A stretch of 64,000 nucleotides of DNA, taken from assembly GCA_903885965.1 (NCBI GenBank), contig CAISKQ010000060.1, positions 21,220 through 85,219 of the forward strand, read 5' to 3'. Origin of the DNA: an uncultured bacterium. Lineage in GTDB: Bacteria > Patescibacteriota > Minisyncoccia > Moranbacterales > GWC2-37-73. A program made the position numbers and the translations under genes. This document shows positions 8,692 through 64,000 of this stretch, in pieces. The notes below the pieces were generated by a model. The model saw only the letters and a program-made list of their open reading frames with translations. It was not told the origin of the DNA and searched no databases. Numbering within the stretch: the first letter of the stretch is position 1; the number at the start of each line of letters is the position of its first letter.

Positions 8692-9183
8692 TCATGCTTG
8701 CAGCCATTCGTCAGTGCCTCTTGGGGCAAATTTGACCGACACACCGAGTTCCCGCAATGCATCCTTATGCCAAATGATACTGCTCCTTATTTCAATCCTA
8801 TCTTCTGGCGAAAATGCATCATTGTTAAGCAAGATTAGCTTAAACTTCGGAACGTTTAGCGGAAGCCTTTCCATCTTATCCTGAAATTCTTCATATGAAA
8901 TCTTTGAGAATCCGACAACATTAGAATAAAAATCAGGGATTTCCGATTTTTGTCTTCTGGACGTCATGATTATATCTTCAAAAAATTTGCCAGCAGCTTT
9001 GAGAAAATTTTGATATTGATTGAAGGTAGATATGAGATATTTCCAATATTCCAAAACTTCTTTTTGCAATTTTAAGCTATTCTTCAGATTAACTCTTCTT
9101 GTCAACATAACAAACTCCCATCGCAATACGCGGAATTTTCCGCAATTAAAAAAACTCCAAACACTCGCAAAACAATACCACAC
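8692..9183 (-). CDS. Hypothetical protein; the true start may be an internal Met.
   Basis: ORF only. 1-nt overlap with the upstream giant gene. Confidence 0.35.
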   Translation of the reverse strand: MWYCFASVWSFFNCGKFRVLRWEFVMLTRRVNLKNSLKLQKEVLEYWKYLISTFNQYQNFLKAAGKFFEDIIMTSRRQKSEIPDFYSNVVGFSKISYEEFQDKMERLPLNVPKFKLILLNNDAFSPEDRIEIRSSIIWHKDALRELGVSVKFAPRGTDEWLQA

Positions 9184-22230: not shown

Positions 22231-24030
22231 ATGAATACTCAACAAATATCCGCATCAGATTATAATTTACTAACCAAAAAATGCCTGCTTTGGCTTGGTT
22301 TTGGTTGGGTTGGTTTTCTGCTCACATTGACTGGTTTTTTTTATGCTTGGATTGTTTGGGCTGTTTTTCTTGCAGGGGCAATTGCATTAAGTGTTAACTT
22401 ATTCAAAAAACACGGACCATTTAAACTTTCAAGAGAATTGACATTGATTAGTCTCGGCATATTTATTTTTGTCATCACTCTTTCTTTTTTTACTTCGCCG
22501 ACACTTTTTTCCGGTCGGGATCAAGGATCAATAAGTGAAGCAGCTATCAGATTAGCGCAGAACCATAGCCTTGTATTTTCAAATCCTGCGGGGGATACGT
22601 TTTTCAAGTTGCGCGGTGCTGGAAGATCACTGAATTTCCCGGGCTTTTTCTATACAAGTAGTGGAGAGCTAATCACGCAATTTCCACTGGTCTACATCTC
22701 TTGGCTAGCTTCTTTTTATGGAATATTTGGAATAATGGGCCTTACTATTGCCAATGCCGTTTTGTCACTTTTATTTTTGTTTACTTTCTATAGTCTAGCT
22801 AGAGTATTTATGCCAATACGTGGCTCAATTATTTCTTTGCTTTTTGCGGCAACTTCCCTTTCAGTCTTTTGGTTCCCAAAATACACCCTAAGTGAAAACA
22901 TGGCCTTGCCACTTGTTTGGCTTTCCATCTTTGCCACGATTTCTTTTTTGAGAAATCAAAACAGACTAAATCTTCTCCTGCTCCTATCTTCTTCTGTTCT
23001 CCTCATCTTTACCCGTATTGAAGGCGTCGCTTTTTTCCTGATTTGCGCAGCTATCACTGTATTTAATAAGAATACTCGAACCTATCTCAAAAATACACTC
23101 GGATGGAAATTCTTTATTTTCCTTGGTTTTCTTTTTGCAATTTTAATTGCCAATGCCACTTGGGACATCAATTTTTATAAAGAGATAGTCAAGGCAGTTC
23201 TTCCGCCCATCACACCTCCACAAACAACATCGCTAGGAACAGTAGGCGACCCGGCTGTTTCAAATTTTTATATGCTTAAAGTTTTCTACCTCTATGGCAT
23301 GCTTAGTTTTTTTGTCCTATCCGCAGTTGCTTGTATTTTTTATGCGACCAAAAAAAATATCCCTAAACTCATTCCTTTCCTCATAGTGGCGCCAACCCTG
23401 ATTTATCTTTTAAACTCACACATCTCAGCTGACCATCCCTGGATGCTAAGAAGATTTGCATTTTCAGTTCTTCCTGGCACAATTTTTTATTGTGCGCTGA
23501 TTCTTGATGACTGGCAAGAATACTTAATTTCAACAAAAAGAAACTTGGCGTTGAGAGTATTACCATCAATCGTTGCGCTTTTTCTTATCGCTGGAAATAT
23601 GCCGGCATTTCTAAACTTTGTAACTTTTTCTGAAAATGAAAATCTACTACCACAAACTCAACAGCTAAGCAAACGCTTTTCTTCAAATGATTTGGTTTTA
23701 ATTGATCGATTAACAACCGATGATGGCTGGTCGATGATTTCTGGGCCAATGAACTTTCTTTATGGAAAAAATACTGCTTACTTTTTTAACATCGAAGATC
23801 TTACCAAGATTGAATTGAAGTCCTTTGATAATGTTTATCTCATTGCCCCAGACAGCAAAATTACTTATTATGAAAATAGCGCCATTGCAAAGCTACTAAC
23901 TCCAGATGGTCAATATACCCTTTCAACTTCCAGACTAGGCTTGGATCAGGAGTTTACTAATTCAAAAAATAGTTTTCCAGAAAAAAGATCAATCATCTCA
24001 CATGGGACAATTTTCAAAGTTTCAAAATAA
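22231..24030 (+). CDS. Polytopic membrane protein, probably a GT-C fold glycosyltransferase (PMT/ArnT-like), with a C-terminal soluble domain.
   Basis: More than 10 predicted TM helices in the first 450 aa, then a soluble domain. Confidence 0.45.
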   Translation: MNTQQISASDYNLLTKKCLLWLGFGWVGFLLTLTGFFYAWIVWAVFLAGAIALSVNLFKKHGPFKLSRELTLISLGIFIFVITLSFFTSPTLFSGRDQGSISEAAIRLAQNHSLVFSNPAGDTFFKLRGAGRSLNFPGFFYTSSGELITQFPLVYISWLASFYGIFGIMGLTIANAVLSLLFLFTFYSLARVFMPIRGSIISLLFAATSLSVFWFPKYTLSENMALPLVWLSIFATISFLRNQNRLNLLLLLSSSVLLIFTRIEGVAFFLICAAITVFNKNTRTYLKNTLGWKFFIFLGFLFAILIANATWDINFYKEIVKAVLPPITPPQTTSLGTVGDPAVSNFYMLKVFYLYGMLSFFVLSAVACIFYATKKNIPKLIPFLIVAPTLIYLLNSHISADHPWMLRRFAFSVLPGTIFYCALILDDWQEYLISTKRNLALRVLPSIVALFLIAGNMPAFLNFVTFSENENLLPQTQQLSKRFSSNDLVLIDRLTTDDGWSMISGPMNFLYGKNTAYFFNIEDLTKIELKSFDNVYLIAPDSKITYYENSAIAKLLTPDGQYTLSTSRLGLDQEFTNSKNSFPEKRSIISHGTIFKVSK

Positions 24031-49024: not shown

Positions 49025-49070
49025 AACTCAAATAAAAAATGTAAATCTTAAAAACCTAAAGCCTGAAAAA

Positions 49071-50312: not shown

Positions 50313-50324
50313 GAAAATTTAAAA

Positions 50325-51068
50325 TTATTTCAACAGTGTTCCTTCTCCATCGGCAATCAAACGATCCTTGACAAGCTCATCAGAAACGATTTGCCCATCT
50401 TTCATGTTCAAGATCCGCTTAGCATGCCGAGCTGTATAAGTTTCATGCGTCACCAAAATTACAGTGTGCCCAGCGTCATTGAGTTTTTGCAAAATCTTCA
50501 TCACAGCCAAACCTGATTTTGAATCCAAATTTCCAGTTGGCTCATCGGCAAAAATAATTTCTGGATTATTTACCAGCGCTCGCGCAATTGCCACTCGCTG
50601 TTTTTCTCCGCCAGAGAGCTGATTGGAAAGATAATCCGTGCGATGACTCATGCCAACTGCATCTAAGGCTTTAGTAATTTTTTCCTTATTGCTTATTTCC
50701 AAATGATCCTCATCATACAAAAGCGGTAGCTCCGTGTTCTCATAAACAGAAGTCCTAGGCAAAAGATTGAAAGACTGAAAAACAAAACCAATTTTCTTGT
50801 TACGAATTTTTGCCAACTCGTCATCGGAATATTGAGTGATATTTTTACCTTCCAATAAATAAATTCCTTCAGTCGGACGATCAAGCATGCCCAAGATTTG
50901 CATCAAAGTTGATTTTCCAGAGCCAGACGGACCCATGATTGAAATAAACTCACCTTTTTGAATTTCAAAACTCACATCAAAAAGCACTGGAGTTTTCACT
51001 CCTTCAGTTTCATAGGTCTTGCTTAAATTTTGAACAGAAATTAAAGGCATATTATTTTGTCGCCACAA
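50325..51068 (-). CDS. ABC transporter ATP-binding protein (MacB/LolD-like).
   Basis: GPSGSGKSTLMQIL, LSGGEKQRVAIARAL, IIFADEPTGNLD. Confidence 0.85.
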   Translation of the reverse strand: MWRQNNMPLISVQNLSKTYETEGVKTPVLFDVSFEIQKGEFISIMGPSGSGKSTLMQILGMLDRPTEGIYLLEGKNITQYSDDELAKIRNKKIGFVFQSFNLLPRTSVYENTELPLLYDEDHLEISNKEKITKALDAVGMSHRTDYLSNQLSGGEKQRVAIARALVNNPEIIFADEPTGNLDSKSGLAVMKILQKLNDAGHTVILVTHETYTARHAKRILNMKDGQIVSDELVKDRLIADGEGTLLK

Positions 51069-52368
51069 ACGTCACCACCCTTTCACCACCCTTGAGTCCT
51101 GATTTTATTTCGACCATACCATCATCACCTTCCAATCCTGTTTCAACTTTGACAGTTTTCACAGTATTATCAACTTGCAAAATATCCACTGTCTTTCCAT
51201 TGTTTGAATCAGTCTTGATTGCGCGAACAGGAATGCTAAGCACGTCATTTTTTTCTGCAGTTTTAATATCAATATTTGCACTCATGCCTGGTTTGATCCG
51301 AACATCAATGTTATTTAGCTTTAATTTTATTTGATAATAAACAACATCTTGAATTGTGGTCGAAGCCGGGTCAATTTCAATCACCTCTCCATCATAAATA
51401 TCCTCCGAAGTCAAAGAATCGAAAGTTATTTTTGAATGTTGACCAAGTTTTAATTTCACGATGTCAGATTCTGGGACTTTTGATTCAATAATCATATCCA
51501 AAGACATTACCCGAGAAAAAGTTTCCTTGATAACTCCAGTTCCCAAAATTTCACCAGGCTTATTATTAACCTCAGTGATAATTCCATTAACAGGAGAGAC
51601 CAGCGTTGCCTTTGCAAGATTAAGCGCAGCTTGATCATAAGTTGCTCTTGCGCCGGCCACGGCTGCGTTTCTCGAGGCTTTTGCAAAATCAGATTCAACT
51701 GTTTTAACTTTTGCGCTAGCACTATCAATTGTGTTTTGAGCATTTACTTTCGAAAGATCAGACTGTTCTTGTACCGTTTTTAAAGATTCCTTAGCTGAAT
51801 TTAAACTATTTTCAGCTGCGGTCAGGGTTGGTTTTGTTTGAAGCTTTATTGCACCATCGCTCAAGCTGTCATAATATGCTGACATATCATCATAATATTT
51901 TTGCGCATTATCAACCGCTTTTCTCGCAGCTGAAATGTTTTGATCATTCAGGGATTTTGTCTGACTAAGGGTATCCTCAGCGTTACTTTTTGCAACTTTC
52001 GCCTCCCGCAGAGTGTCACTATTAGAACCAGCATTGGCAATTGCTTGATCAAGACCAGCTTGAGCCTGGGCCATCTGTTTTTGAAGTGTCGCATCAGTTA
52101 GGGTTGCAATTTTGTCCCCTGCGGCAACCTTATCACTGGTTTTGACAAAAACATTGCTCACCCTGCCGCCTAGTTCAAAATTGAGAGTAATTTCATCTTT
52201 TGCAACTAAGTCGCCAGTAACTGAAACTGTTTGTGCCAGTGTTCCCTTAACCACATCCGCAGCTGTATAGGTAGTCACTGTTTTTTTGCTTTTAAAATAA
52301 AAAACAATTCCGCCAACGATAACGACAGAGATCACAATCCAAATTATCCATTTTTTTGCTTTTTTCAT
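51052..52368 (-). CDS. Efflux periplasmic adaptor subunit (HlyD/MacA family).
   Basis: N-terminal TM, long coiled-coil, C-terminal beta-barrel domains. Confidence 0.75.
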   Translation of the reverse strand: MKKAKKWIIWIVISVVIVGGIVFYFKSKKTVTTYTAADVVKGTLAQTVSVTGDLVAKDEITLNFELGGRVSNVFVKTSDKVAAGDKIATLTDATLQKQMAQAQAGLDQAIANAGSNSDTLREAKVAKSNAEDTLSQTKSLNDQNISAARKAVDNAQKYYDDMSAYYDSLSDGAIKLQTKPTLTAAENSLNSAKESLKTVQEQSDLSKVNAQNTIDSASAKVKTVESDFAKASRNAAVAGARATYDQAALNLAKATLVSPVNGIITEVNNKPGEILGTGVIKETFSRVMSLDMIIESKVPESDIVKLKLGQHSKITFDSLTSEDIYDGEVIEIDPASTTIQDVVYYQIKLKLNNIDVRIKPGMSANIDIKTAEKNDVLSIPVRAIKTDSNNGKTVDILQVDNTVKTVKVETGLEGDDGMVEIKSGLKGGERVVTFVATK

Positions 52369-52377
52369 ATTTGTTTC

Positions 52378-52490
52378 AAACTTTTGTCATACTGAACCTG
52401 CCTGCCCGCCTTTGGAGGGTTTCAGCATCTACTTCCTTTGCATAAGATAACTTCCTGCATGCAAGATCCTGAACTAAATTCAGGATGACA
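52378..52490. repeat. Paired palindromic hairpins (REP/BIME-like), locus C. The first hairpin carries a GC-rich 20-nt loop insert.
   Basis: gtcATACTGAAcctgcctgcccgcctttggagggTTTCAGCATc and gATCCTGAActaaaTTCAGGATgac. Confidence 0.65.
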
Positions 52491-52514
52491 AAAAATATAT
52501 TTACAATTTATTTT

Positions 52515-52976
52515 TTAAAAAAGAAAGTTCTGATTTACTTCTCCGTCCAATGCTTCATTAACTAAAGCGTCAGCAATTTTGTTCTTTTCGCGCAGCACAT
52601 GCGTAAAGGTTACCTTTTCAAACTCCAACATCAAGTTCCAAATTTCAATGAAATATTGCTGAATGCGGGGCTCTTTAAGCTTATACTCATGGCCGAGCTG
52701 TTTTACAACCAACTCGCTATCCAAAAAACAATTAATCGTTGCTTGTTTGGCTGAAATATTGCCCAGTAATTGCTTTAATTTTTTCAACCCAAAAATAAGC
52801 GCTTCATATTCTGCGTCATTGTTGGTTTTTATTCCAATACATTGCCCATATTTCCACTCCGCAACTTCTCCGCCAGAGGCCGCTTTATCCTTGACTGAAA
52901 TATACACACCAATTCCAGCCGGTCCCGGATTGCCTCGCGATCCGCCATCCGTGAACATGATAATTTCCTTTGCCAT
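52515..52976 (-). CDS. rnhA: Ribonuclease HI.
   Basis: FTDGGSRGNPGPAGIGV, EYEALIFGL, RNase H fold DEDD residues. Confidence 0.85.
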   Translation of the reverse strand: MAKEIIMFTDGGSRGNPGPAGIGVYISVKDKAASGGEVAEWKYGQCIGIKTNNDAEYEALIFGLKKLKQLLGNISAKQATINCFLDSELVVKQLGHEYKLKEPRIQQYFIEIWNLMLEFEKVTFTHVLREKNKIADALVNEALDGEVNQNFLF

Positions 52977-53317
52977 GATTTCACAAGTTTAAATCTTATA
53001 TTTTCATTCTAGCATTTTAAATACATTAGAGCAATAAAAAAAGCAACAAAATAAAAAGGTTTCAGGGGTCATACGCAACACATGGTTCCAACCAAGGACT
53101 ATTTCTGAATTTTTACGAGCTTGTTTGCTTTTTAGACCACTGCGAGCAACAGCGAACTGCGAGCGATTGGCTATAACTCCTAGCCAAAGGAGCGCGCCCA
53201 AAAAGTAAACAAGGGAAGTAAAAATTTCTAACTTAGCTTCCAAGAACCATAAACTGCGTATGACCCAAGACTTGTCTCTTAATATTTCAATAAAGAAGGG
53301 GCTAATGCACTTACAGC

Positions 53318-54541
53318 CTATCCCTTCGATAAAGTTATTTCAACTATTTCAGAGTGCTTTTCAGTTCGCATTGGTGTTCCCCACGCGCCAAGCCCACAAG
53401 AAGTATAGATTGAAAAATTGCCTTTTTTCTTCAAACCATAGTCATAACCTCCAAACATAAATCGCGTAACAATTCCAAATGGAAAGAGCTGACCCTTGTG
53501 AGTGTGCCCAGAAAGCATAAGAGAAATGCCAAGCCTTCGGATCTTCCCCACTTGAGTTGGCGTATGCCAAAGCAAAATACTTGGCTTTGATTGCTTGAAA
53601 TTTGAAATCTTTTTAATAGCCCTTACCACACTTAATTTTTCTGAATGCTTAGGATACTCAATTCCGATAAATTGAAGTCCGTCAACTAGTTTAATTTGAT
53701 TTCTCAAGCAAGTGATTTTTGTTTTACCCAAAACCTTAAAGGTCTCATTCAGACCCAAATAGGTTTCATGATTACCAGAAGCATAAAAAATCCCTTGTGG
53801 CGCTTTAAGCAGATTGAGCGGCTCGATAAAGACATCCACATGGCCATCCGTGCCGTCAAAAAGATCCCCGGTTATAACAATAGCATCCGGATTCAAAGAA
53901 TTTATCCTTTTTGCCACTTCACGCATATAGTCGACATGATATATATGTCCTAAGTGAACGTCAGATATTTGTACAATTTTTTTGCCAATCCAAACCTTAG
54001 GCAGATTATTAATGGAAACATTAATCTTTTTTACAACCGGAGTAAAAGCGTTAACAATGCCATATAGAGAATATATAGCTGCGCCAATAATTGCGAGACT
54101 TCCGATTTTTCTCTCGCTAGGATCAAAACCTGCAAGTTGACTTGCAAAAACAACCAACCAACCAAAGGCAAAGAACAGCAAAATATTGATCATGAAACCC
54201 ACCCACACACCAGAAAAGAAATAATATTTCCTATTAAAATGATTATCCCAGCGATGCGCTAGTAAGGTTGAAATCATTATACTGAAGCCCAAAAAAGAAC
54301 CCAACATGACCAATAGCCAGATTAGGATATTCTTTTCATACGGCTGAGAAAAGGGGAAAAAATGCGCCACAGAAAAATAGACCGCCACATGAGCAGCTAT
54401 ATAGGAAGGAAAAACCAGCAAAAAAACAACACTGGATTTTAGAATTTTTCTCACTTTATTTAACATCTGACAATTATAGCATATCTGCGTATCCTGACCA
54501 CACCAAAAAGATATCACACAGAACATCAAAAAACTTAGCAT
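53318..54541 (-). CDS. Membrane-anchored calcineurin-like metallophosphoesterase.
   Basis: N-terminal TM helices; DVHLGH, GDLFDG, GNHE, GHTH motifs. Confidence 0.75.
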   Translation of the reverse strand: MLSFLMFCVISFWCGQDTQICYNCQMLNKVRKILKSSVVFLLVFPSYIAAHVAVYFSVAHFFPFSQPYEKNILIWLLVMLGSFLGFSIMISTLLAHRWDNHFNRKYYFFSGVWVGFMINILLFFAFGWLVVFASQLAGFDPSERKIGSLAIIGAAIYSLYGIVNAFTPVVKKINVSINNLPKVWIGKKIVQISDVHLGHIYHVDYMREVAKRINSLNPDAIVITGDLFDGTDGHVDVFIEPLNLLKAPQGIFYASGNHETYLGLNETFKVLGKTKITCLRNQIKLVDGLQFIGIEYPKHSEKLSVVRAIKKISNFKQSKPSILLWHTPTQVGKIRRLGISLMLSGHTHKGQLFPFGIVTRFMFGGYDYGLKKKGNFSIYTSCGLGAWGTPMRTEKHSEIVEITLSKG

Positions 54542-54614
54542 TTAAGTTAAAAAATAAAACATCATTACTGATGTTTTAAAATAACCTAATTACTGCAAAT
54601 TTTTTACATGAAAA

Positions 54615-55148
54615 TTATGATTGCCCTTTAAATGCAACAGTTGCTGGTTGCAGACTAATCACTGGCAATGGCTGACAAATTTCTGCATAGCCATGCACTG
54701 TAATAGTTATTGGTTTTTTTGCTGAAGATGCTTTAATATTTTCATTCACTTTATCTGTTGGGTCAATCAGCTTAACATTAAAGCTTGTTTCTGCTTCATT
54801 TGGCTGATAATTCACGACTGGCAATTTTGAAACATCACTTTTCTTGATTGCAATAACAATTCCATCCTTGTCCTGCGAGACAAATTGACCTTCAATTTGC
54901 ACATCCCCATCATAATAATGAGGCTGACAACTATTATCGGCGGCGACATTCTCAGTGTCAACCACCTGCGCAGGAGCACGCTTAACTGGAATTACAACAG
55001 TATCATTTTTCTGCTCTTCAATAGTTAACTCTGCAATTTTTCTGGCATTCCTAATCCAAATAATTCCACCAATAATAATAGCAACCAACAAAATAATCAT
55101 AATTGCAAATTCGCTGGCAATACCATTGTCTTTATTTTTTTTACGCAT
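54615..55148 (-). CDS. Hypothetical single-TM protein.
   Basis: ORF only. Confidence 0.4.
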   Translation of the reverse strand: MRKKNKDNGIASEFAIMIILLVAIIIGGIIWIRNARKIAELTIEEQKNDTVVIPVKRAPAQVVDTENVAADNSCQPHYYDGDVQIEGQFVSQDKDGIVIAIKKSDVSKLPVVNYQPNEAETSFNVKLIDPTDKVNENIKASSAKKPITITVHGYAEICQPLPVISLQPATVAFKGQS

Positions 55149-55204
55149 ACTTTTTTATTTTTAGACAATTCACGGAAAATAAATTATTTTATATTTTTTA
55201 TTAT

Positions 55205-55300
55205 CTAGCGACGATAACAAAAGGTTTAATACCTTAAGGATTGTCCACCTCGGCGAGCCTCGGACGAGACGGGCCTCTTAAGCCTTGGGGTATTAAATAC
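55205..55300. other. GC-rich structured element in an AT-rich spacer. GGTTTAATACC...GGTATTAAATACC arms enclose a GC-rich core; possible bidirectional terminator or small RNA.
   Basis: aaaggtttaataccttaaggattgtccacctcggcgagcctcggacgagacgggcctcttaagccttggggtattaaataccctttt. Confidence 0.35.
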
Positions 55301-55308
55301 CCTTTTTA

Positions 55309-55500
55309 TTATTGGTACATACTAGTTATCGAACTCATTAGAGACGGCAGAATGAAAATAACTGCTACTAGAGGAAGAAGAACCGTAACCGCTGTTATGA
55401 TTAATGTCCACATAAAATACTTCCTCAATTTTTCAACTGAGATATAAATTGCATCAATCTTTGCCTGTTGCTCCTGGATTTTTTTTAAGATTTCTTCCAT
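55309..55500 (-). CDS. Small hypothetical TM protein.
   Basis: 63 aa, one hydrophobic helix; ORF only. Confidence 0.3.
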   Translation of the reverse strand: MEEILKKIQEQQAKIDAIYISVEKLRKYFMWTLIITAVTVLLPLVAVIFILPSLMSSITSMYQ

Positions 55501-55586
55501 GTTTAAAATTATAGCACGTTTTCAAAATTTGCGCAAAAAAAAACGCTGCCAAATTGAAGGCAGCGTTTTTTATTTCGAAAGAAAAT

Positions 55587-58500
55587 CTATTGCACAATAC
55601 TTCCTGATTTGCGTTTTCTCCAAACAAAGATTCCAGCTCCAGCAAGAATAATGACAAGTAACCATTTCCAATTCGAAGCCCAGAAACCTGATTGATTTCC
55701 ATTTTCTTGATCAGTTGTTTCGCCCAACACCGAACCAGTATCATTTGAGCCGCCTGAAGCTTCAGTGGTTTTAACCACGCTGTCGTTGTTGCTATTTTCA
55801 GAGGCAGCCTTGTCTTTTGAAGCTGGTTCTGTACCCTGAAGCACTCCCACAGCTACTCTATTACCAGTTGGAATAGTAATTTTAATTACCTTGGAAGCAC
55901 TTTGGTTGCCGGCAGCATCTTCGGTCACGACTTTGTAGAAATAGGTCTTTCCAATTTCAACGTCACTGTCCTTATATACCTCCTCTTGCCTATTTTGTTT
56001 AGAAACTCGTGAGCCACTGTCTTTAACGAAGTTCTTTTTGGTTCCACGATAGATATAAACCTTTTCAATTGATTTGTCCTTGGCATCCCAAGAAACTTTA
56101 ACATCTTGCGTCTCTGGACGATATTTAGCACCCAGATTCTTCACGGTGTCTGGAGCAAGCGTGTCTAGCAATTCTCCGAAAGAAGTAAAATGATAGGTCA
56201 AAATCTTGGTGTCAGTGCCGTTGCTGATGGTACACTCGCCACATACTGGGGCTCCAGTTGGACTGTCATAGGTTCCTGTGCAAATATTAGTGATCTCCAT
56301 CCATTGATTTGAACCAGCTGGGCGATAACCAACCGCCCCAGTCACACCTGGCAGCGTTATGATTACTGGAGTATCAAAAGTGATTGTTCCATTTGGTGAA
56401 CCAAGTGTGATGACAGTACCACCAACTGCAAAACCAGCTGGTGCTTTGCCGCCGTTTGGCGTGCCGGCAGTTGGCGCTGAAATGATTCCGTCCCAACTAG
56501 CTGGGCCAGTCACTTTCGTACCGTCCGGAATGACCACATCAGCAACGTCAGAATTGATAGTGATTTGTGGCAAGGTGCCAGTTCCTCCTGTGAGCAGCGC
56601 ACTCACATCAATGGTTGGATCTTGTGTGCCACTTGCCACTTCAACTGTCACATTTTGATTTTGATCCGTCAGCACGACTTGCGGATTGCCAGCATTAACC
56701 GTGGCATTTCCATCTCCGTCTGGGGCGGTTTGTCCGATTGTGAAAGTTCCATCAGCAGCATATGCGATGTCATAGTTTACATCCGTAGCATCAAAAGCAG
56801 TGATGCGATATGCACCAACAGTTTCACCAGCTTCACGGGTCAATCTCACCGGCGTATCAAGTGCCAATTCATTTTCACCATTCACAAATCCAGCATAAGA
56901 GGCCGTAAGTGTCGGATCAACAGCCCCATATGTTTTGCTAATATCATCAGCTGCAATAGTAAGAGCTTTCTGCTCAATAGTAAGGGTGCTATTCGTTGGA
57001 GTTACAGCATAGTTTGGATTAGAGCCAAGAGTCACAACGATTGCTGGTGTGCCAACATTAGAAAATTGAGTTGCAGTTGTGCCAAGTGTGTAGTTGAGTG
57101 CATCACCATTAATGATTCCAGCAACAACCGCTGTTAATTCTGGATTAACATCGCCATAAGTTTTTGTTTTAGCTTCAGCAACAACCGTCGCAGCTTTCTG
57201 CTCAATAGTAAAGCTTTGTGACACATCAGATGCTCCGTTGTAATTAGCATTGCCTGCTTGGTGAGCAGTCACAGTGCAAGAGCCAGCGCCTGTAATATGA
57301 ATTGCGTTATCGATACTTGAACAATTGCCAGAAGTGCTAAACACAACGGTCAGGCCAGAACTTGCTGAGGCGCTCACTGTAAAATCAACACCACCATAAG
57401 TTTTTCCAGACAATGCATCAAATGTAATTGCTTGATTTGCTTTAACAACATTTACCGTTCTTGTCACTGGTGTAGCAACGTTTCCTGCAGCATCGGTCGC
57501 ATTATAAGTTATCGTATATGTTCCAACCATATTTGTATCCACCGTTCCACTGGCATTCACGGCAACTGACGGATCCACATTATCAGTGGCAGTTGCACCC
57601 GCATCCACGTACGAACTTCCATACGTAATATCAATAGGGTTTGGATTATTAATTGTAATCACTGGCGGAGTTGTATCAACTGGTAGCGCTTGTACATATG
57701 CAGCATACTGCGAAAAATGACTCGTCCAAATTACCAAATCATTTCCAACGTCAATTTTACAACCACCATTTTTCCTAGCCAAATCTCCTGAATTTTGAGA
57801 ATCAGCAGCGCAAATATTAGCTATTTCAGTAAATTCTCCACCCACTTGCTTAAAACCAGTTCGCTTGCCAGCCTGACCAGGCAATAAAATCCTGACGGCC
57901 CTGTCAAAAGAAAGATTGGTGTTGATTGAGCCGACTTCAATTGCAGCATCAACTGAAAGTGCTCCTGGCACAGTTACGTCTTTTACATTTAAAGCGACTG
58001 GGGCGGAAATGATGCCATTCCAGTTTAGGTCTTTACTTGTAATTGTTGTCTGATTTGGAATTAATACTTGAGCAGAGTCTGAAGAAATTGAAATCTGTGG
58101 CAAAAGTCCAGTTCCATTGTCGCCAATAAGACTACTGACATTGACCGTTGCATTTTCAACCCCAGCTGCAACTGACACTACCGTAGCGCTTTGATTAGAA
58201 CTACTAACTAAAGCCTCCGAAGTGTCCGCATTGACATTGGTTGTTCCCCCTCCAGCCATAACTTGCTTTACTGTTGAAGTTCCTATGTTAGTAATATAGG
58301 CCATCCCAGGACCTGGGGAGACAAAAGGAATGTCAAAAAATGGCACGTAAGATGAGTTATTCCCCAAAATATCTTGAATATATAGATAAAACTTCCAACG
58401 TCCACCAGACGAATTTGTCGGAAGAGTTGCTTCGCAAATATATTTATTTTCAGCTATTTTTGTAACCAGCGTAGGAATAGCATATTGACTATTTCCTAAC

Positions 58501-61500
58501 AACTCACAAGAATTCTCATAATAACGGCCCAATGGCTCTGAAGTTTCAAATACTGCTGTGATTTTTCGTGAATGATTGTCAGTATTAACCGTGGTTGGTG
58601 TGACAGAAAAAGAATTGAGTTTTGGCCCAGTTTCATCTGAGATTTTTGCATCATTATTTATTACTGCTCCATCATGAGATGCTGGCCAGCTTTTTGTGTT
58701 TGAATCAAAACCAAAAGGATATCCATTTAGATAGCGTGCGTCATAATAACTATTATTCCAAAAACTATCTGCGAAGCTTAATCGAAAATACCAGTCTCCT
58801 TTTGCTGAACCTACTGGCAGTGTAAATTTACAAGTGTATTGATCTCCATTTTTTGTAACAATGTTATTATATATACCTCCCTGATAATTTTGACCTGTCG
58901 TATTTGAACCCAAATTACAGCTAACTCCATCATCATTTACACCAACAGGATCAGAAACTTTAAACGTTGCAGTTATGGTCTGCGCAGCATTTGAAGTGTC
59001 AACCGTAGTTGGTGTGGCGGAGAACTCAGTCAAGACTGGACCAGTTTTATCCGCACTTTCCGCAGGAGCTATATTAGTGACTTTAGCTGTCGCATTTGGC
59101 AACACAGCATTTATGCCAGAAATAACCCCATTATCATATTTATAATTAGGGTCATATCTATAACTAACATAATGACCGAAATTATCCGAAATATCATTTA
59201 TCCCAAAATACCAAGCTCCAGTGGCTGAAAAAGCTGGCAAAACAACCGTGCAAGTGTAATTATTAACTTCTCCTGGCACAGCCCTCAAAACTCCCCATAC
59301 ATACTGACTGTTTTTATCTGAATGAAGCTCACAAATAGCACCATCTCCTTTTTCATCTAAATAGATACCGTTTTGACTTGTGATTGTGATGTTTGCAGTA
59401 ATAGTGTCTGAAGAAGTCGAAGTGTTAACTTCTGCCTTATCTACAGAAAATTCCGTGAGCGCTGGGGGTGCAATATTTCCAAGATCAAAAGTCGACATAT
59501 TTTGAATCACTATTCCTTTTGCGCCAGGAACCTCATTTAAGTTTATTATGCCTTCCTGGACTCTTTCCCCTGAACCATAGGCACTTCCATTACCAGACCT
59601 ATCCTGAAAAAACAAATTAAAATCCCATTCTCCTTGCGCTGACAAACTTTCAAAATTAAAAATGCAAGTATATTGATCCTTTTTGCCAGTACTTGCAATT
59701 GCTCCATTATACCTTTGATACGCTGTTTTATTTGTTGAAATTAATTGACAATCTGAATTATCAATGTTAACCCCCGATGGATCTGAAACGGTAAAAGTTG
59801 CCGCAACTGTCCTAGAAGATGGCAAGTCCGTGTTGATAGTTGTTGGGGTAGCTGAAAAAGAAGTTACAATCGGACCAGACTCGTCCTTAATCAAAAAGTC
59901 TACTGCATGAGAATTACTTTCACCCAAACAATCAGCGCTAATAAATTCATTAATTTCAACTTTCCAACCTGAACCTTGAGTTGCACTGTCAGCTAAGGTA
60001 TAAGAACCTTTTTGTGGATCAACGCTACCAGCAGTGCAAGTACTAATATATGACCACGTTCCTTCGGGAGATAAAATAGCAAAACGATAATATTTATTAA
60101 CTGAAAGTGATGACTCTGTTTTAAAATAGATCGTGTCACCTGGTTGAAATTTTAAACTATTAGTTGTAAATCCTAGATCTTCATAGGTCATCAAGAAAGC
60201 TGTACTTGTCTGATGGTCAACCGCAGCTGTCGCTGGAAAAACTGCCGTCACCACACCAGAGCCAGCGGCATTGGTTGTGATTGCACCAGCGACCGTGAAA
60301 AAGTTTTCGGCAATACCATCTAAAGTGTATCCAGTTTTGGGAGTAAGGGAGATGATTGCAATATATGCCGTGCTCGAAGCAAATTTCGTCGGATTTCCAT
60401 TCCAGACAATTGTTGCTGAATATTGATCTGTGTCGGCGATGAAAGCTGTTGGGTTTGCACCAGTTGAGGGAGCGACTATTCCATTAATTTGGGCTTGCGA
60501 GATTAAAGCGGCAGCCGTTGCTGGAAACGTAACCATCACAATGCTAGAATTAGGCGCATTCGTCGTTGTTGCCCCTGCGACAGTGAAAAAATTTTCTGAA
60601 ACACCGCTTTGGGTGTATCCATCCTTGGGTATAATTACGATAGTCGCAGTGTATACCGTGTCTGGAGCAAATATCGACGAACCATTATTCCAATAAATCT
60701 TCGCTGAATATTGATCCGTGTCAGCGATGGAGGAAGTAAGCGTTGCGCCAGTTACAGGAGCTATTATCCCGTTGATTTGAGCTTGCGAGATCACAATTGG
60801 ACCCGACGGTGCCGATGGTGTTCCTGGAGCAAGTTCTCCGACTGAAAACAATGTCGCATGATCAGTCTGAAACGTGCAAAGACCATTAATTACAGCGCAT
60901 GTTTGATTCTGACCGTTCAATTGTTGTGTTTGCCAATCTGTTGCCCACTCATTTTGGGAAAAGACGTTGAGCGTCCTGCCATTAAAGTTATACCCAATAT
61001 ACATCGAAATCGTGAGCGGTTTAGAAAATGAGAGAGCTGTCCCTTCAATGCCTAAACGGATAACACCCGCGGAATCATACCCTGCAAGAGAACTGTTCAC
61101 CTGAAAAGTCAAATCCTGAGCTGTAAGGGCTGTCATATCAAACACGCCACCATCTTTTTTGCTGATTTCAGTCCCACTTGGGATCGTAACAGTTGCATTT
61201 GAAGATTCCAGCGTGTAATCGAGATTGAAAGTAGCCTTGTTTGCAGTGGCTGGACTCGTTCCGTCCATAGAAATGTAACCAGCTGCAATATCTTGACTAA
61301 GGATATCTATCGGAAAAGTCGGGTTTAAGGAAACAGTCCTTCCGTTTGTTATATTATAGGTCTCTTTCATGGTCGAGCTCTTTTCAAAACCCTCTTTCAT
61401 TTCAATTGCTTTCAGTGTCATTGATTTTGAAACTTCAATCGGCCCAGCATATAGTGAGGACTTCTCGTTAGGCTTCGACCCGTCCGTCGTATAACGAATT

Positions 61501-62573
61501 TCAGGATTTAAACTACTGTCCGTAGAATTTAATTCGACGCTAACCGTTTCAGGATAGACGCCTCCATAAATAGAGGCTATCGGCATATCTAGCGGTGCCT
61601 GCAATTTACAGTTATCGCCGTTATCATCACAACCATACCCATATCCATAACCTGCAGGCAAAGACATGGTTTGTTCGAACCATAATTTTATATTATTAAA
61701 CCACACTATTAAACTAGAACTCTTCTCCACAATGAGAAAAAGTGTGAAATGATCTAATTTAGCATCTATCTTGTTATCTTTTACTTTCACATCACCTTCT
61801 GGCACCGTTTCGGCTTTTTCGAGTCCAGCCACGTTCTCGGCAAATTTAATCTCAACATCTGACTGATCTTTCGGCTTCGGCAGAGTCATCATATAAGTAA
61901 AAGTCCCGTCGGCCATGTCGGACGTGATGTCATATGCCTTATTGGAAAGCGCATGCAGAGTCGCGACCTGCTCATCTGAAAGCGTGATTTCTTCAATCGA
62001 AAGCTTGCCCGCATCTTTTGGTAATTTCGTGAAGGTGACGGTCACTTGATCATTTTGTGGTGCCACATACGTTTTTCCCAACGCAACTACCACGTTAGTG
62101 GTTGCTTTATTTCCGTCATTGTTCCACTGCGGCAAAGTTTTGTCAGTCGGAGTTGGAGTTAGAATTGGTTCATTTTGAGCAGGTGCCACCTGAGTTTCTG
62201 TTGGCGCAACTGTTGCGGCTGGCATTTCAACTTTCGGAGTTTCGGGGACTGGAGTTAACACAACTGGTTTTTCAATTGTGACTGGCGGTGTTGCAACAAC
62301 TGGCGTTTCAGGAACCGAAGTTGACACAACTGGCGTCTCAACTTTTGGCGCATCTTTTATCACTTCACTGGCTGCTGGAGCTGGATCAGTTGTCACCACT
62401 GTTGCTGCGGTTACATCCTCAGCCTTGGCTGTCATCAACCCTGCAACCAAAAAATTCAAGCTAGTCATATAAAAAATCATGATTGGCAACAAAGTGGCTG
62501 CCACAATTCTTCTGAGCACAATAATTTCTCTCGACAAAAGACTTAATTGGAACATCCTCTTAATTGTGTTCAT
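55587..62573 (-). CDS. Giant (2328 aa) cell-surface adhesin-like protein: signal anchor, Pro/Thr-rich linker, CHB_HEX_C-like, DUF5011/Ig-like, MBG and FN3-like domains, internal tandem repeats, C-terminal TM anchor with a basic tail.
   Basis: IRYTTDGSKPNEKSS (chitobiase-C-like). DTTPPVITINNPNPIDITYGSSYVDAGATATDNVD...GNVATPVTRTVNV (DUF5011-like). EQKALTIAADDISKTYGAVDP (MBG-like). FN3-like near the C-terminus. Two about 95-aa tandem repeats (ISQAQINGI...FPATAA). C-terminal WKWLLVIILAGAGIFVWRKRKS. Confidence 0.8.
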   Translation of the reverse strand: MNTIKRMFQLSLLSREIIVLRRIVAATLLPIMIFYMTSLNFLVAGLMTAKAEDVTAATVVTTDPAPAASEVIKDAPKVETPVVSTSVPETPVVATPPVTIEKPVVLTPVPETPKVEMPAATVAPTETQVAPAQNEPILTPTPTDKTLPQWNNDGNKATTNVVVALGKTYVAPQNDQVTVTFTKLPKDAGKLSIEEITLSDEQVATLHALSNKAYDITSDMADGTFTYMMTLPKPKDQSDVEIKFAENVAGLEKAETVPEGDVKVKDNKIDAKLDHFTLFLIVEKSSSLIVWFNNIKLWFEQTMSLPAGYGYGYGCDDNGDNCKLQAPLDMPIASIYGGVYPETVSVELNSTDSSLNPEIRYTTDGSKPNEKSSLYAGPIEVSKSMTLKAIEMKEGFEKSSTMKETYNITNGRTVSLNPTFPIDILSQDIAAGYISMDGTSPATANKATFNLDYTLESSNATVTIPSGTEISKKDGGVFDMTALTAQDLTFQVNSSLAGYDSAGVIRLGIEGTALSFSKPLTISMYIGYNFNGRTLNVFSQNEWATDWQTQQLNGQNQTCAVINGLCTFQTDHATLFSVGELAPGTPSAPSGPIVISQAQINGIIAPVTGATLTSSIADTDQYSAKIYWNNGSSIFAPDTVYTATIVIIPKDGYTQSGVSENFFTVAGATTTNAPNSSIVMVTFPATAAALISQAQINGIVAPSTGANPTAFIADTDQYSATIVWNGNPTKFASSTAYIAIISLTPKTGYTLDGIAENFFTVAGAITTNAAGSGVVTAVFPATAAVDHQTSTAFLMTYEDLGFTTNSLKFQPGDTIYFKTESSLSVNKYYRFAILSPEGTWSYISTCTAGSVDPQKGSYTLADSATQGSGWKVEINEFISADCLGESNSHAVDFLIKDESGPIVTSFSATPTTINTDLPSSRTVAATFTVSDPSGVNIDNSDCQLISTNKTAYQRYNGAIASTGKKDQYTCIFNFESLSAQGEWDFNLFFQDRSGNGSAYGSGERVQEGIINLNEVPGAKGIVIQNMSTFDLGNIAPPALTEFSVDKAEVNTSTSSDTITANITITSQNGIYLDEKGDGAICELHSDKNSQYVWGVLRAVPGEVNNYTCTVVLPAFSATGAWYFGINDISDNFGHYVSYRYDPNYKYDNGVISGINAVLPNATAKVTNIAPAESADKTGPVLTEFSATPTTVDTSNAAQTITATFKVSDPVGVNDDGVSCNLGSNTTGQNYQGGIYNNIVTKNGDQYTCKFTLPVGSAKGDWYFRLSFADSFWNNSYYDARYLNGYPFGFDSNTKSWPASHDGAVINNDAKISDETGPKLNSFSVTPTTVNTDNHSRKITAVFETSEPLGRYYENSCELLGNSQYAIPTLVTKIAENKYICEATLPTNSSGGRWKFYLYIQDILGNNSSYVPFFDIPFVSPGPGMAYITNIGTSTVKQVMAGGGTTNVNADTSEALVSSSNQSATVVSVAAGVENATVNVSSLIGDNGTGLLPQISISSDSAQVLIPNQTTITSKDLNWNGIISAPVALNVKDVTVPGALSVDAAIEVGSINTNLSFDRAVRILLPGQAGKRTGFKQVGGEFTEIANICAADSQNSGDLARKNGGCKIDVGNDLVIWTSHFSQYAAYVQALPVDTTPPVITINNPNPIDITYGSSYVDAGATATDNVDPSVAVNASGTVDTNMVGTYTITYNATDAAGNVATPVTRTVNVVKANQAITFDALSGKTYGGVDFTVSASASSGLTVVFSTSGNCSSIDNAIHITGAGSCTVTAHQAGNANYNGASDVSQSFTIEQKAATVVAEAKTKTYGDVNPELTAVVAGIINGDALNYTLGTTATQFSNVGTPAIVVTLGSNPNYAVTPTNSTLTIEQKALTIAADDISKTYGAVDPTLTASYAGFVNGENELALDTPVRLTREAGETVGAYRITAFDATDVNYDIAYAADGTFTIGQTAPDGDGNATVNAGNPQVVLTDQNQNVTVEVASGTQDPTIDVSALLTGGTGTLPQITINSDVADVVIPDGTKVTGPASWDGIISAPTAGTPNGGKAPAGFAVGGTVITLGSPNGTITFDTPVIITLPGVTGAVGYRPAGSNQWMEITNICTGTYDSPTGAPVCGECTISNGTDTKILTYHFTSFGELLDTLAPDTVKNLGAKYRPETQDVKVSWDAKDKSIEKVYIYRGTKKNFVKDSGSRVSKQNRQEEVYKDSDVEIGKTYFYKVVTEDAAGNQSASKVIKITIPTGNRVAVGVLQGTEPASKDKAASENSNNDSVVKTTEASGGSNDTGSVLGETTDQENGNQSGFWASNWKWLLVIILAGAGIFVWRKRKSGSIVQ

Positions 62574-62875
62574 AATTTTTTTATTCGCCAGGCGGCGAAT
62601 GATTAAGTAAATAAAAAAATATTAAAATTTGTTAAATTAATTCGGAGCAACAAAAAAAACAAACCAACAAAAAGAAGCCATCTAATGATTTCCTTTTGCT
62701 AATTCGTTTTTTGCTTTGTTTAAACATAATACCAAGATTCACTCAACCCAATACTAGGCCCTAAAATAAGCCAACGGCAATTAATACCTTAATCATGCGC
62801 TTTTTATTTCCATTGTCAAGCAAACGGCAAAGCTCAATTCTAGATCCTATTTAAAGTCACCTGCCAAAATATAGT

Positions 62876-64000
62876 TTAGTTTTTCAAACTGATTCTATAA
62901 ACCCAAATAGCTTGAGCCAAATCAGCATTATCCTGAAAGACTACTTTTCCAAATTTTTGAATATATTCTCGCATCGCTTGACTCATGCGTGACTTTGACA
63001 TCGAATCAACCAAGATGTAGGCATTTTGCTGCTTTCGCAAAGGACTAGCAATGTATTTGTCTAAAGGGCTATGCTGAGTATATAGCATTGGAGTCCCGGA
63101 ATAATGTTCTTTCCCCAATTGACCCGTACTATCCTGAACTCTACCGGTATACGAAATAGGAATGGCAAAAGTTGAACGACCGAGATAGATTTTATCCATA
63201 TAAGGATAAGCTGAAATAATTGCATCCTCATCTTTGATTTCAGTCTTAATTTCTTGATATGCTTGCTTAAAGTTTGGCTGCGGAGTATATTCTTCCAAGG
63301 CAAATATCACCTGAGGAGTAAATAATAATGAATGAACCGTAAAAAAATCAAAAGTTAACAAGACAATACAAATAAATAAATATTTTTTTGTAGTTGGAAA
63401 AAGAAAATTCAGAGCATAACTACTATACATAAAAAGGAAGGGAGTGACAAAAAACAAATATCGATACTGATTGACAAGCACAAAAAATGAAAAGAACAAG
63501 GTGGCAGCAATAAAGAATATCCCAATAACAACATGAACTCTCCAGTTATTTTTTTCATATATAATTGCCAGTAAAAAACCAAGAATTGTCAAAAAGAAAA
63601 AAATTCCAAAAAATTGCCAAAAATACCCATTCAAATAATATTTTCCATAATTAACCATTCCCATCCCCAACGCGGAGATCAACATGTCTCGAAATATATA
63701 TATGCCTAGTCCGAGCAAGGCTATGGAAATTAGGCCTAGCCTATAAAGTTTTTTTAGAAAAAGATAACCAATAAGCGGAACCAGCAACAAAATGCCAGCG
63801 CTTTTTGAAGCAATCGCACAAACAACAAAGATCAAAACCGCTATCAAATATTTTTTTTCTAATTTTTTTTCATAAATAATCAAAAATAGCAACGCCATTA
63901 GAATAAAGAAAACCAAAAGCGCATATGGCCTAAGTTGTCTACTCCAAGCGATTTGCCAATAGGAAAAAGTAAACAAGAAAGCTGAAAACAAACCCACCTT
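62876..64000 (-). CDS. GT-C fold membrane glycosyltransferase (ArnT/PMT-like); the N-terminus lies beyond the window end.
   Basis: Multiple TM helices followed by a C-terminal soluble domain; the reading frame is open to the window edge. Confidence 0.5.
   Translation of the reverse strand, partial: KVGLFSAFLFTFSYWQIAWSRQLRPYALLVFFILMALLFLIIYEKKLEKKYLIAVLIFVVCAIASKSAGILLLVPLIGYLFLKKLYRLGLISIALLGLGIYIFRDMLISALGMGMVNYGKYYLNGYFWQFFGIFFFLTILGFLLAIIYEKNNWRVHVVIGIFFIAATLFFSFFVLVNQYRYLFFVTPFLFMYSSYALNFLFPTTKKYLFICIVLLTFDFFTVHSLLFTPQVIFALEEYTPQPNFKQAYQEIKTEIKDEDAIISAYPYMDKIYLGRSTFAIPISYTGRVQDSTGQLGKEHYSGTPMLYTQHSPLDKYIASPLRKQQNAYILVDSMSKSRMSQAMREYIQKFGKVVFQDNADLAQAIWVYRISLKN

Follow-up and report, generated by a model that had tools for sequence, protein, structure and literature searches.

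A 64,000-nucleotide stretch of DNA from an uncultured bacterium of the Moranbacterales (contig CAISKQ010000060.1 of assembly GCA_903885965.1, positions 21,220 to 85,219; hereafter "the window") carries a gene for a giant protein of 2328 amino acids (aa). We read this protein as a variant, from the Patescibacteria, of the MAIN-domain surface proteins: its N-terminal domain is GAIN/ZU5-like, and its putative sorting motif is not LPXTG but one for which we found no curated model. With moderate confidence we propose that it is a secreted, envelope-anchored, modular adhesin, with self-cleaving H-F-[ST] domains and a VLGxxT signal, that would be released under load. The family to which it belongs exhibits a constant layout: a long Sec leader, a low-complexity linker, an N-terminal ZU5/GAIN_B-like domain, interchangeable adhesive modules, and a C-terminus made of a VLGxxT motif, a polar spacer, a Trp-rich transmembrane (TM) helix and a basic tail. 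The giant protein contains in addition two intact modules of about 200 aa, terminated by HFS or HFT; the second of them directly precedes the FN3-like domain, the stalk and the anchor.

The open reading frame (ORF) is uninterrupted from its ATG start. Two independent Logan assemblies carry the identical protein (100%), called from Met7; since the same protein is found in both, neither the giant gene nor its internal repeats are assembly artefacts. An initial annotation, made from the letters of this DNA and a list of its ORFs, had described an adhesin-like protein of 2328 aa. The ORF was reproduced, and the adhesin-like character is supported by the domain content (Pfam) and by the homologues. 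Four DUF7034-like units, the HF[ST] modules of about 200 aa and the N-terminal domain at residues 150-292 had been missed. The features of the gene are as follows.

55587..62573, minus strand: whole gene, secreted envelope-anchored modular surface protein (ORF, Pfam, homologues, two assemblies)
62421..62573, minus strand: long Sec-type leader, residues 1-51, ending AKA|EDV (sequence; family leaders)
62127..62420, minus strand: low-complexity linker rich in T, P, V and A, residues 52-149 (T 18%, P 18%, V 17%, A 14%)
61698..62126, minus strand: family-defining N-terminal ZU5/GAIN_B-like beta-sandwich, residues 150-292
61743..61751, minus strand: H275-F276-T277, predicted self-cleavage site HF|T (in the model, in the turn that separates strands E124-129 and E134-139, ahead of the last strand)
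61356..61565, minus strand: CHB_HEX_C_1 / Fn3_assoc domain, residues 337-406 (Pfam, 58.5 and 54.7 bits)
60810..61214, minus strand: degenerate copy of the ~200-aa module, residues 454-588, ending DHATLFSVGEL, with HAT for HF[ST] (profile A3, 13.7 bits, domain E 2.6e-4)
60222..60791, minus strand: two tandem 96-aa units of an unnamed domain, residues 595-688 and 691-784 (self-comparison)
58314..59900, minus strand: four DUF7034-like units, residues 892-1420, period about 138 aa (self-similarity and Pfam)
57663..58280, minus strand: internal ~200-aa HF[ST] module, residues 1432-1637, ending WTSHF|SQYAAYV, H1619-F1620-S1621 (profile A3, 227.6 bits)
57447..57659, minus strand: single Bact_surface_Ig-like domain (former DUF5011), residues 1639-1709 (Pfam, 65.8 bits, one stretch)
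56739..57446, minus strand: residues 1710-1795, then two MBG_2 domains, residues 1796-1865 and 1871-1945 (Pfam, 60.6 and 77.9 bits)
56136..56738, minus strand: anchor-proximal ~200-aa HF[ST] module, residues 1946-2146, ending ILTYHF|TSFGELL, H2128-F2129-T2130 (profile A3, 319.8 bits)
55860..56135, minus strand: FN3-like domain, residues 2147-2238
55686..55859, minus strand: stalk rich in G, S, T and N, residues 2239-2296; a degenerate first copy of the motif, GVLQGTE, lies at the stalk start (composition)
55713..55730, minus strand: pre-anchor motif V2282-L-G-E-T-T2287, candidate sortase recognition site (conservation; consensus G-x-V-L-G-[AE]-x-T)
55590..55685, minus strand: Trp-rich TM helix, residues 2297-2318, and basic tail RKRKSGSIVQ, residues 2319-2328 (sequence)

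The N-terminal domain and the H-F-[ST] modules

The N-terminal domain matches no Pfam or NCBIfam model and no PDB sequence. Its AF2 model (pLDDT 92.1) exhibits a beta-sandwich fold of the GAIN_B/ZU5 kind. In a Foldseek search with this model, ZU5 domains and the GAIN domain of BAI3 rank first, with TM scores of 0.5-0.6; the listed ZU5/GAIN matches are the ZU5 domains of ankyrin and UNC5B, the FIIND of CARD8 and NLRP1, and the GAIN domains of CD97, BAI3, CELSR1 and GPR126. Over its ~135 aa the domain exhibits 51-75% identity to its relatives, with 28 invariant columns that include H-F-T. When one genome of each GTDB species was scanned with a pattern, 109 confirmed stretches (42-72% identity) were obtained, the carriers being Moran-, Pacei-, Woese-, Collier-, Roizman-, Shapiro-, Levy-, Davies-, Gracili-, Berkel-, Sacchari- and Andersenbacteria. 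In these relatives it always lies 86-239 aa from the protein start.

The triplet H275-F276-T277 is located in the beta-turn between the last two strands of the domain, with a hydrophobic residue between the histidine and the threonine. H-[FML]-T is present at this place in 79/79 homologues (HFT in 73, HMT in 5, HLT in 1). In place and in chemistry this triplet corresponds to the HX(S/T) at which GAIN domains cleave themselves, and by analogy with GAIN and MAIN domains we predict cleavage at HF|T277. The corresponding segment of a eukaryotic GAIN domain reads HL|TxFAVLM; that of the giant protein reads HF|TLFLIV. In eukaryotic GAIN (adhesion G protein-coupled receptors) and ZU5/FIIND domains (NLRP1, CARD8, PIDD, UNC5) alike, H-L/F-S/T stands before a hydrophobic last strand. 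In contrast to these eukaryotic domains, the giant protein has no helical GAIN_A subdomain and no seven-TM (7TM) or death-domain partner, its sequence identity to them is 9-16%, and it is bacterial and extracellular.

The two intact modules of about 200 aa (residues 1432-1637 and 1946-2146) are about 40% identical to each other. The profile A3 matches the giant protein three times, at residues 1946-2146, at 1440-1635 and, in degenerate form, at 454-572. The triplet HF[ST] occurs in the whole protein exactly three times, at positions 275, 1619 and 2128, each of them ending such a module. No Pfam, NCBIfam or PDB-sequence match was obtained for the ~200-aa module. A profile search of 1.84 billion cluster representatives retrieved 2233 examples (752 at E<=1e-30), and all but one of 146 domain hits carry H-[FL]-[TS] (HFT 143, HLT 1, HLS 1). 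Across the family the module is found at a median distance of 165 aa from the C-terminus. It also occurs in phyla other than the Patescibacteria, where it precedes peptidoglycan (PG)-binding or LysM anchors; the Peptococcaceae protein KJS64014.1 exhibits two such modules followed by a sequence that we read by eye as SLH repeats. In the giant protein the module at 1946-2146 is located between the ectodomain and the cell-surface anchor, being followed by the FN3-like domain, the stalk and the anchor. Its motif, position and architecture make it a candidate autoproteolytic domain of the MAIN type.

MAIN domains have been described as microbial GAIN_B-like sandwiches that cleave at HX(S/T) (HF|S in YfkN), with products that stay associated after cleavage (Brogan & Rudner, bioRxiv 10.64898/2026.05.12.724683). 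Their place is between a large adhesive or enzymatic ectodomain and an anchor of the sortase, SLH or wall-binding type; they occur chiefly in Bacillota, bear the DPAM label "ZU5", and co-occur with CHB_HEX_C_1, DUF5011 and fn3 (bioRxiv 10.64898/2026.05.12.724683). The giant protein is likewise a large secreted surface protein containing CHB_HEX_C_1, DUF5011 and fn3. As in MAIN domains, a H-hydrophobic-S/T triplet occupies the last beta-turn, and the module at 1946-2146 stands just before the anchor; ZU5 is at once the DPAM class of MAIN and the top fold of the N-terminal domain of the giant protein. In contrast to MAIN proteins, its structurally supported domain is at the N-terminus and not beside the anchor, up to three or four copies occur per protein, and the anchor motif is VLGxxT instead of LPXTG, SLH or a cell-wall-binding domain; the comparison with YfkN is one of architecture and fold label, not of sequence. 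Patescibacteria are not mentioned in the text of the preprint or in part of its supplements (bioRxiv 10.64898/2026.05.12.724683). In the literature we found no description of GAIN/ZU5 domains in Patescibacteria or of a patescibacterial sortase motif.

Self-cleaving domains of a further kind, the eukaryotic SEA domains, are cut at G|S. In fold and in cleavage motif SEA and the bacterial SEAL domains differ from the domains described here, and neither is among the structural matches of the N-terminal domain. The concept is alike, however: a juxtamembrane self-cleaving beta-turn with products that stay associated until pulled apart (PMC10556640).

The C-terminal motif, the anchor and the sortases of related loci

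The giant protein ends with ...GSVLGETTDQENGNQSGFWASNWKWLLVIILAGAGIFVWRKRKSGSIVQ. A hydrophobic helix and a positive tail are located at the extreme C-terminus (FWASNWKWLLVIILAGAGIFVW followed by RKRK), and SVLGETT is found 15 residues ahead of the helix. The stalk, C-terminal helix and RKRK tail of the initial annotation are thus confirmed. Among the 107 distinct C-termini of our first hit list, 48 exhibit a helix with a basic tail, and 32 of these 48 carry [VIL][LKE]G[EAD]x at 9-45 residues upstream of the helix. The sequence logo of the motif reads G-x-V-L-G-[A/E]-x-T; an example of a peptide bearing the candidate sorting signal is NGSVLGEETTAD. Taking 69 proteins selected on the N-terminal domain alone, we counted [VI]LGxx[TS] at 6.85 per 1000 residues within the final 110 aa, against 0.295 elsewhere (23-fold, Fisher p 4e-40). 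Among the proteins of the window (18,113 aa) the six-residue VLG motif occurs once, in the giant protein. A second, degenerate copy is present at residues 2239-2251 (about 55821-55859), where the giant protein reads GVLQGTE and relatives read VLGVET or VLGAET; a second copy at the stalk start is present in many proteins. This copy comes right after the last folded domain, and two motifs therefore flank the low-complexity stalk.

The order of leader, adhesive modules, wall-spanning stalk, motif, helix and basic tail is that of the Gram-positive sortase substrates (LPXTG, MSCRAMM-type), and sortase genes adjoin related loci of the family. The giant protein differs from these substrates by its G-x-V-L-G-x-x-T motif, found 9-45 residues upstream in place of LPXTG, and by a sortase clade that attains no class cutoff. 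No LPXTG pentapeptide precedes its helix: the model TIGR01167 (LPXTG_anchor) gave 13.3 bits against a cutoff of 15.9, over columns 17-33 only. The full-length protein gave no hit to sorting models at E<=0.01. Models of the LPXTG, NPXTG, LPxTATN, PEP-, PEF-, Loki-, Heimdall- and Firmicu-CTERM signals matched only below threshold, in helix and tail columns. Curated models recognised no signal of the exosortase, archaeosortase or rhombosortase systems next to the helix either; PEP_CTERM and Loki-, PEF- and Heimdall-CTERM gave sub-threshold matches to the C-termini of relatives and none to that of the giant protein.

We clustered the ORFs flanking 79 related loci. In 11 of these loci (L014, L024, L028, L034-L036, L041, L052, L053, L076, L083) a sortase of about 220 aa overlaps or directly follows the family gene. 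These sortases exhibit 78-83 bits against PF04203 and 51-52 bits against TIGR01076 (cutoff 39.35), so passing the generic model, and reach none of the class-specific cutoffs. The C-terminal ~60 residues of the proteins encoded next to them contain VLGxxT and no LPXTG. A sortase probably processes the giant protein at its VLGxxT motif, in keeping with this arrangement. A multi-pass membrane protein of about 170 aa is often found 3' of the sortase, and a CAP-domain membrane protein adjoins the family gene in 26 loci. The three recur in other Patescibacteria as a cassette, composed of the CAP-domain membrane protein, the unclassified sortase lying over the stop codon of the family gene, and the ~170-aa protein. 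At L017, L020 and L021 the ~170-aa membrane protein is fused to the family protein as its C-terminal anchor.

The best class-specific score of these sortases is for class C, the pilus class (69 bits against a cutoff of 160). This raises the alternative of a polymerised fibre, in which the VLGxxT end of one subunit would be joined by the sortase to a conserved lysine in the N-terminal domain of the next, forming a pilus-like filament. Indeed K39 of the N-terminal domain is almost invariant within the stretch V-x-V-T-F-T-K-L-P (V-T-V-T-F-T-K-L-P presumably recalling a pilin motif), and every family member possesses the N-terminal domain together with the C-terminal signal. Yet the class C cutoff, like the others, is not reached, at 1000-3500 aa the subunits do not resemble known pilins, the N-terminal domain exhibits a ZU5/GAIN-like fold and not the CnaB/CnaA pilin fold, and no multi-pilin operon is present among the related loci. 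We regard such a fibre as highly improbable.

The window encodes a second large protein with a comparable end.

9183..12713, minus strand: 1176-aa LCAT/lipase-like secreted protein (Pfam LCAT, 53.2 bits, and others), with VLGVAA at 9513..9530, a TM helix at 9228..9281 and a basic tail

The initial annotation had proposed, on the basis of the TM helix and basic tail of both proteins, that they share an anchoring or sorting route. The lipase-like protein does end in this manner. Hydrophobicity is not what argues for the shared route; a motif of the form G-x-V-L-G-x-x-[TS] in both families is. The resemblance extends beyond generic hydrophobicity because this VLG-type motif is common to the two. 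The lipase-like protein reads QVLGVAAE before its helix, and its closest homologues read VLGAxx, VAGAST or VLGVST; distant homologues end differently. The sequences thus support, for these members of separate families, a common sorting route in an altered form, which would apply to both proteins. Besides the LCAT/Lipase_2/PGAP1-type alpha/beta-hydrolase domain (about residues 295-512), the lipase-like protein exhibits a weak beta-helix hit, Ig-like units and a stalk rich in K and S. In its distant homologues the C-terminal region has no TM helix in place of the anchor, and looks helical by eye.

Proposed processing, and a plain anchor as its alternative

From these sequence features we infer cleavage and sortase processing of the giant protein, like every other processing step given here; for the N-terminal domain the proposal draws on fold and motif, for the ~200-aa modules on motif and position. 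The protein would be exported by the Sec route, its leader probably being cut after AKA51. The C-terminal helix and RKRK tail would hold it in the membrane, and a sortase specific to Patescibacteria would probably cut VLGxxT and link the protein to the wall. The H-F-[ST] domains may cleave themselves by an N-to-O acyl shift at HF|T277, HF|S1621 and HF|T2130, and, as for GAIN and MAIN domains, the last beta-strand would keep the pieces together. The CHB_HEX_C, DUF7034, DUF5011, MBG and 96-aa modules would bind the partner surface. Mechanical load might then pull a cleaved domain apart, by which the adhesive ectodomain would be released.

Several observations weigh against this proposal. The N-terminal domain does not lie between an ectodomain and the anchor, and misfits the published MAIN architecture because it is at the far end from the anchor. 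The ankyrin ZU5, its best match, and the ZU5 of UNC5 have the same fold and are not self-cleaving. The AF2 model of the ~200-aa module has a pLDDT <50 over the module core, and hhalign detected no profile similarity between this module and the N-terminal domain. The VLG motif is found 9-45 residues from the helix, beyond the usual LPXTG spacing; in the lipase-like protein it is ~83 residues off and lacks the T/S at the sixth position; and it also stands ahead of two other C-terminal anchor types, which have two helices. Since it can be far from the helix and also precedes two-helix anchors, the motif may serve another purpose. Finally, no homologue of the sortase, the CAP protein or the small membrane protein is present in the 64-kb window, and neither sortase nor CAP nor partner genes were found within 10 kb of three syntenic orthologues.

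Much of this would be accounted for by a plain tail-anchored adhesin that is not processed, in which VLGxxT would mark the end of the stalk (as a site for a protease, for glycosylation or for wall contact) and the HF[ST] and ZU5-like modules would have a structural or binding role and would not cleave. The lack of a sortase in the window and near the syntenic orthologues, the motif before two-helix anchors and at times far from the helix, the non-cleaving ZU5 domains among the best structural matches and the low pLDDT of the ~200-aa module all fit such a protein. It leaves aside, however, the sortase genes that, at 11 loci, overlap the end of a family gene or come directly after it, beside substrates whose C-terminal ~60 residues have no LPXTG, and the H-hydrophobic-[ST] triplet. 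Catalysis of the cleavage type is favoured because this triplet is invariant (79/79 and 145/146), lies at the GAIN/MAIN turn and is hard to explain otherwise. We therefore consider an unprocessed adhesin unlikely, and continue to prefer an adhesin with self-cleaving domains.

A wider proposal is doubtful and is offered tentatively: the Patescibacteria might share a break-away tether, consisting of hypervariable giant adhesins with a self-cleaving GAIN/ZU5-like domain at the distal, N-terminal end, a new VLGxxT sortase signal, a dedicated sortase clade, and CAP and small multi-pass membrane proteins. Under this proposal the N-terminal position would imply another logic, such as a releasable cap or a force sensor at the tip that contacts the host, and the anchor-proximal MAIN-type modules of the giant protein would shed the whole ectodomain. 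All cultivated Patescibacteria live attached to host cells, and little is known of how they attach and detach. If our proposals are correct, the N-terminal domain would extend the microbial GAIN ("MAIN") principle to Patescibacteria in a new topology, and a general mechanism of attachment and detachment would be available for these episymbiotic ultra-small bacteria. The non-LPXTG motif with its own sortase clade would provide annotation pipelines with a handle to define the patescibacterial surface proteome.

Leader, middle modules, locus and neighbouring genes

In many lineages the leaders of the family end in AxA followed by E, D or Q. The N-terminus of the giant protein had been annotated as a signal anchor. 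The hydrophobic leader itself is there; because it ends in AKA|ED, and family leaders in AxA|[EDQ], a cleaved signal peptide appears more likely from the sequence than a signal anchor. The Pro/Thr linker that had been noted next to it is borne out by the T-, P-, V- and A-rich composition of residues 52-149.

The chitobiase-C-like domain of the initial annotation corresponds to a CHB_HEX_C_1 match at residues 337-401 (58.5 bits). Of the repeated DUF5011 and MBG-like modules that it listed, MBG_2 indeed occurs twice, while DUF5011 is found once only; for residues 1710-1795, between them, the Ig-like family Big_3_5 gave a sub-threshold score (14 bits, cutoff 35.5). The four DUF7034-like units score 26.4, 35.2, 31.6 and 19.5 bits one by one against a Pfam cutoff of 27.

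Two near-identical tandem units of about 95 aa had also been described, with an assembly duplication named as the possible objection. Two tandem units exist, and their period is 96 aa. They are identical at 60 of 94 aa (64%), at 69% of DNA positions and at 54% of third codon positions, and Tandem Repeats Finder (TRF) detected no DNA tandem across them. With such a DNA identity and a blank TRF result, the description "near-identical" does not hold, and the duplication is an old one. An origin by assembly duplication is rejected on the same two grounds and by the identical protein in two other assemblies. The relatives possess a single copy of the unit. It has no Pfam, NCBIfam or PDB-sequence match; the NCBIfam "tandem-95 repeat" (NF012211) was considered and does not apply, no NCBIfam hit being obtained to the unit at E<=10 or to the whole protein.

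Named homologues of the giant protein, of the lipase-like protein and of the glycosyltransferase encoded upstream belong mostly to Candidatus Moranbacteria/Moraniibacteriota or to other Patescibacteria. Its own copies aside, each match to the giant protein covers just 2-27% of its length. When the hits are mapped onto the protein, two regions stand out as widely shared: residues 1-290, covered by up to 89 of 119 hits, and the last ~190-380 residues. Among the homologue hits listed, none matches the DUF7034 block. At the chromosomal position of the giant gene, relatives encode P0002 (1996 aa), P0003 (1412 aa) or P0017 (1375 aa), three proteins that have only the two ends in common with the giant protein. 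Downstream of all three the order is an ORF of ~53-64 aa, a protein of ~180 aa, a metallophosphoesterase, an RNase H, a HlyD-like protein, an ABC ATPase and two FtsX permeases. When positions 47765-62573 of the window are compared with L003, L004, L006 and the P0002 locus, the gene order is kept and the orthologues are 1375-1996 aa long. These syntenic orthologues share with the giant protein only residues 1-290 and about 1943-2326, the middle modules being swapped. The locus is thus hypervariable with constant termini. Its surroundings are of low GC content (31-45%), in a gene array lying nearly all on the minus strand.

The genes on either side of the giant gene are:

55309..55500, minus strand: conserved downstream single-TM ORF, 63 aa (translation; a 63-64-aa ORF at P0002 and P0003 and a 53-aa ORF at P0017 in the same position)
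54615..55148, minus strand: conserved downstream membrane-anchored protein, 177 aa (ORF; syntenic counterparts of about 178-186 aa)
62876..64000, minus strand: upstream PMT_2 (GT-C, GT39-like) gene, truncated by the window end (Pfam PMT_2, 29.8 bits; 511 aa at full length in L001)

The 63-aa ORF and the 177-aa protein lie directly 3' of the giant gene, keep their position in relatives and have no family match; for the 177-aa protein, Pfam and NCBIfam were searched.

The initial annotation regarded two GT-C enzymes, encoded from 62876 and from 22231, as adjacent and as candidates for glycosylating the giant and lipase-like proteins; in such a model Thr/Ser-rich segments of both would be modified as part of a shared anchoring route. 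PMT-family enzymes O-mannosylate secreted proteins in Actinobacteria, and the segments rich in T/P and in S/T/G are plausible targets of O-glycosylation. The gene at 62876 is a real PMT_2 gene, directly upstream of the giant gene on the same strand; its homologues in Moraniibacteriota are named GT39. However, this adjacency is not conserved: the 10 kb around each of the 79 related loci contain no PMT_2 homologue, and the syntenic orthologues have other genes, and no PMT_2, upstream. A 56%-identical PMT_2 homologue (P0333 locus) is not adjacent to a large surface-protein gene either, the nearest one (family membership unchecked) being ~9 kb away. As for 22231..24030, it exhibits only a sub-threshold match to a putative glycosyltransferase family (31.8 bits, cutoff 200) with no Pfam hit, and it cannot be called adjacent since it is 33 kb from the giant gene. 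Gene context gives no support to glycosylation of the giant protein by GT-C enzymes, and we judge that model improbable; glycosylation of the T/P-rich linker as such is possible.

Immediately upstream of the ATG of the giant gene, in the minus-strand reading of 62574-62603, lies a near-perfect hairpin of 18 nt, ATTCGCCGCCTGGCGAAT, with a stem of 7 bp and a loop of 4 nt; A7 comes after it. There is no obvious Shine-Dalgarno sequence just upstream of this ATG, and promoter and terminator scans around the gene gave results at chance level. Elsewhere in the window, ARAGORN called a "tRNA-???" with a two-base anticodon at 29808-29883 (minus strand); the Rfam tRNA model is below its gathering score there, and the call is probably false or the tRNA aberrant. 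Many "MAG TPA_asm" records with the patescibacterial N-terminal domain are titled Bdellovibrionales, Gammaproteobacteria or Pseudomonadales (L013, L023, L024, L034-L036, L039, L043, L048 and others), and their taxonomy is probably mislabelled.

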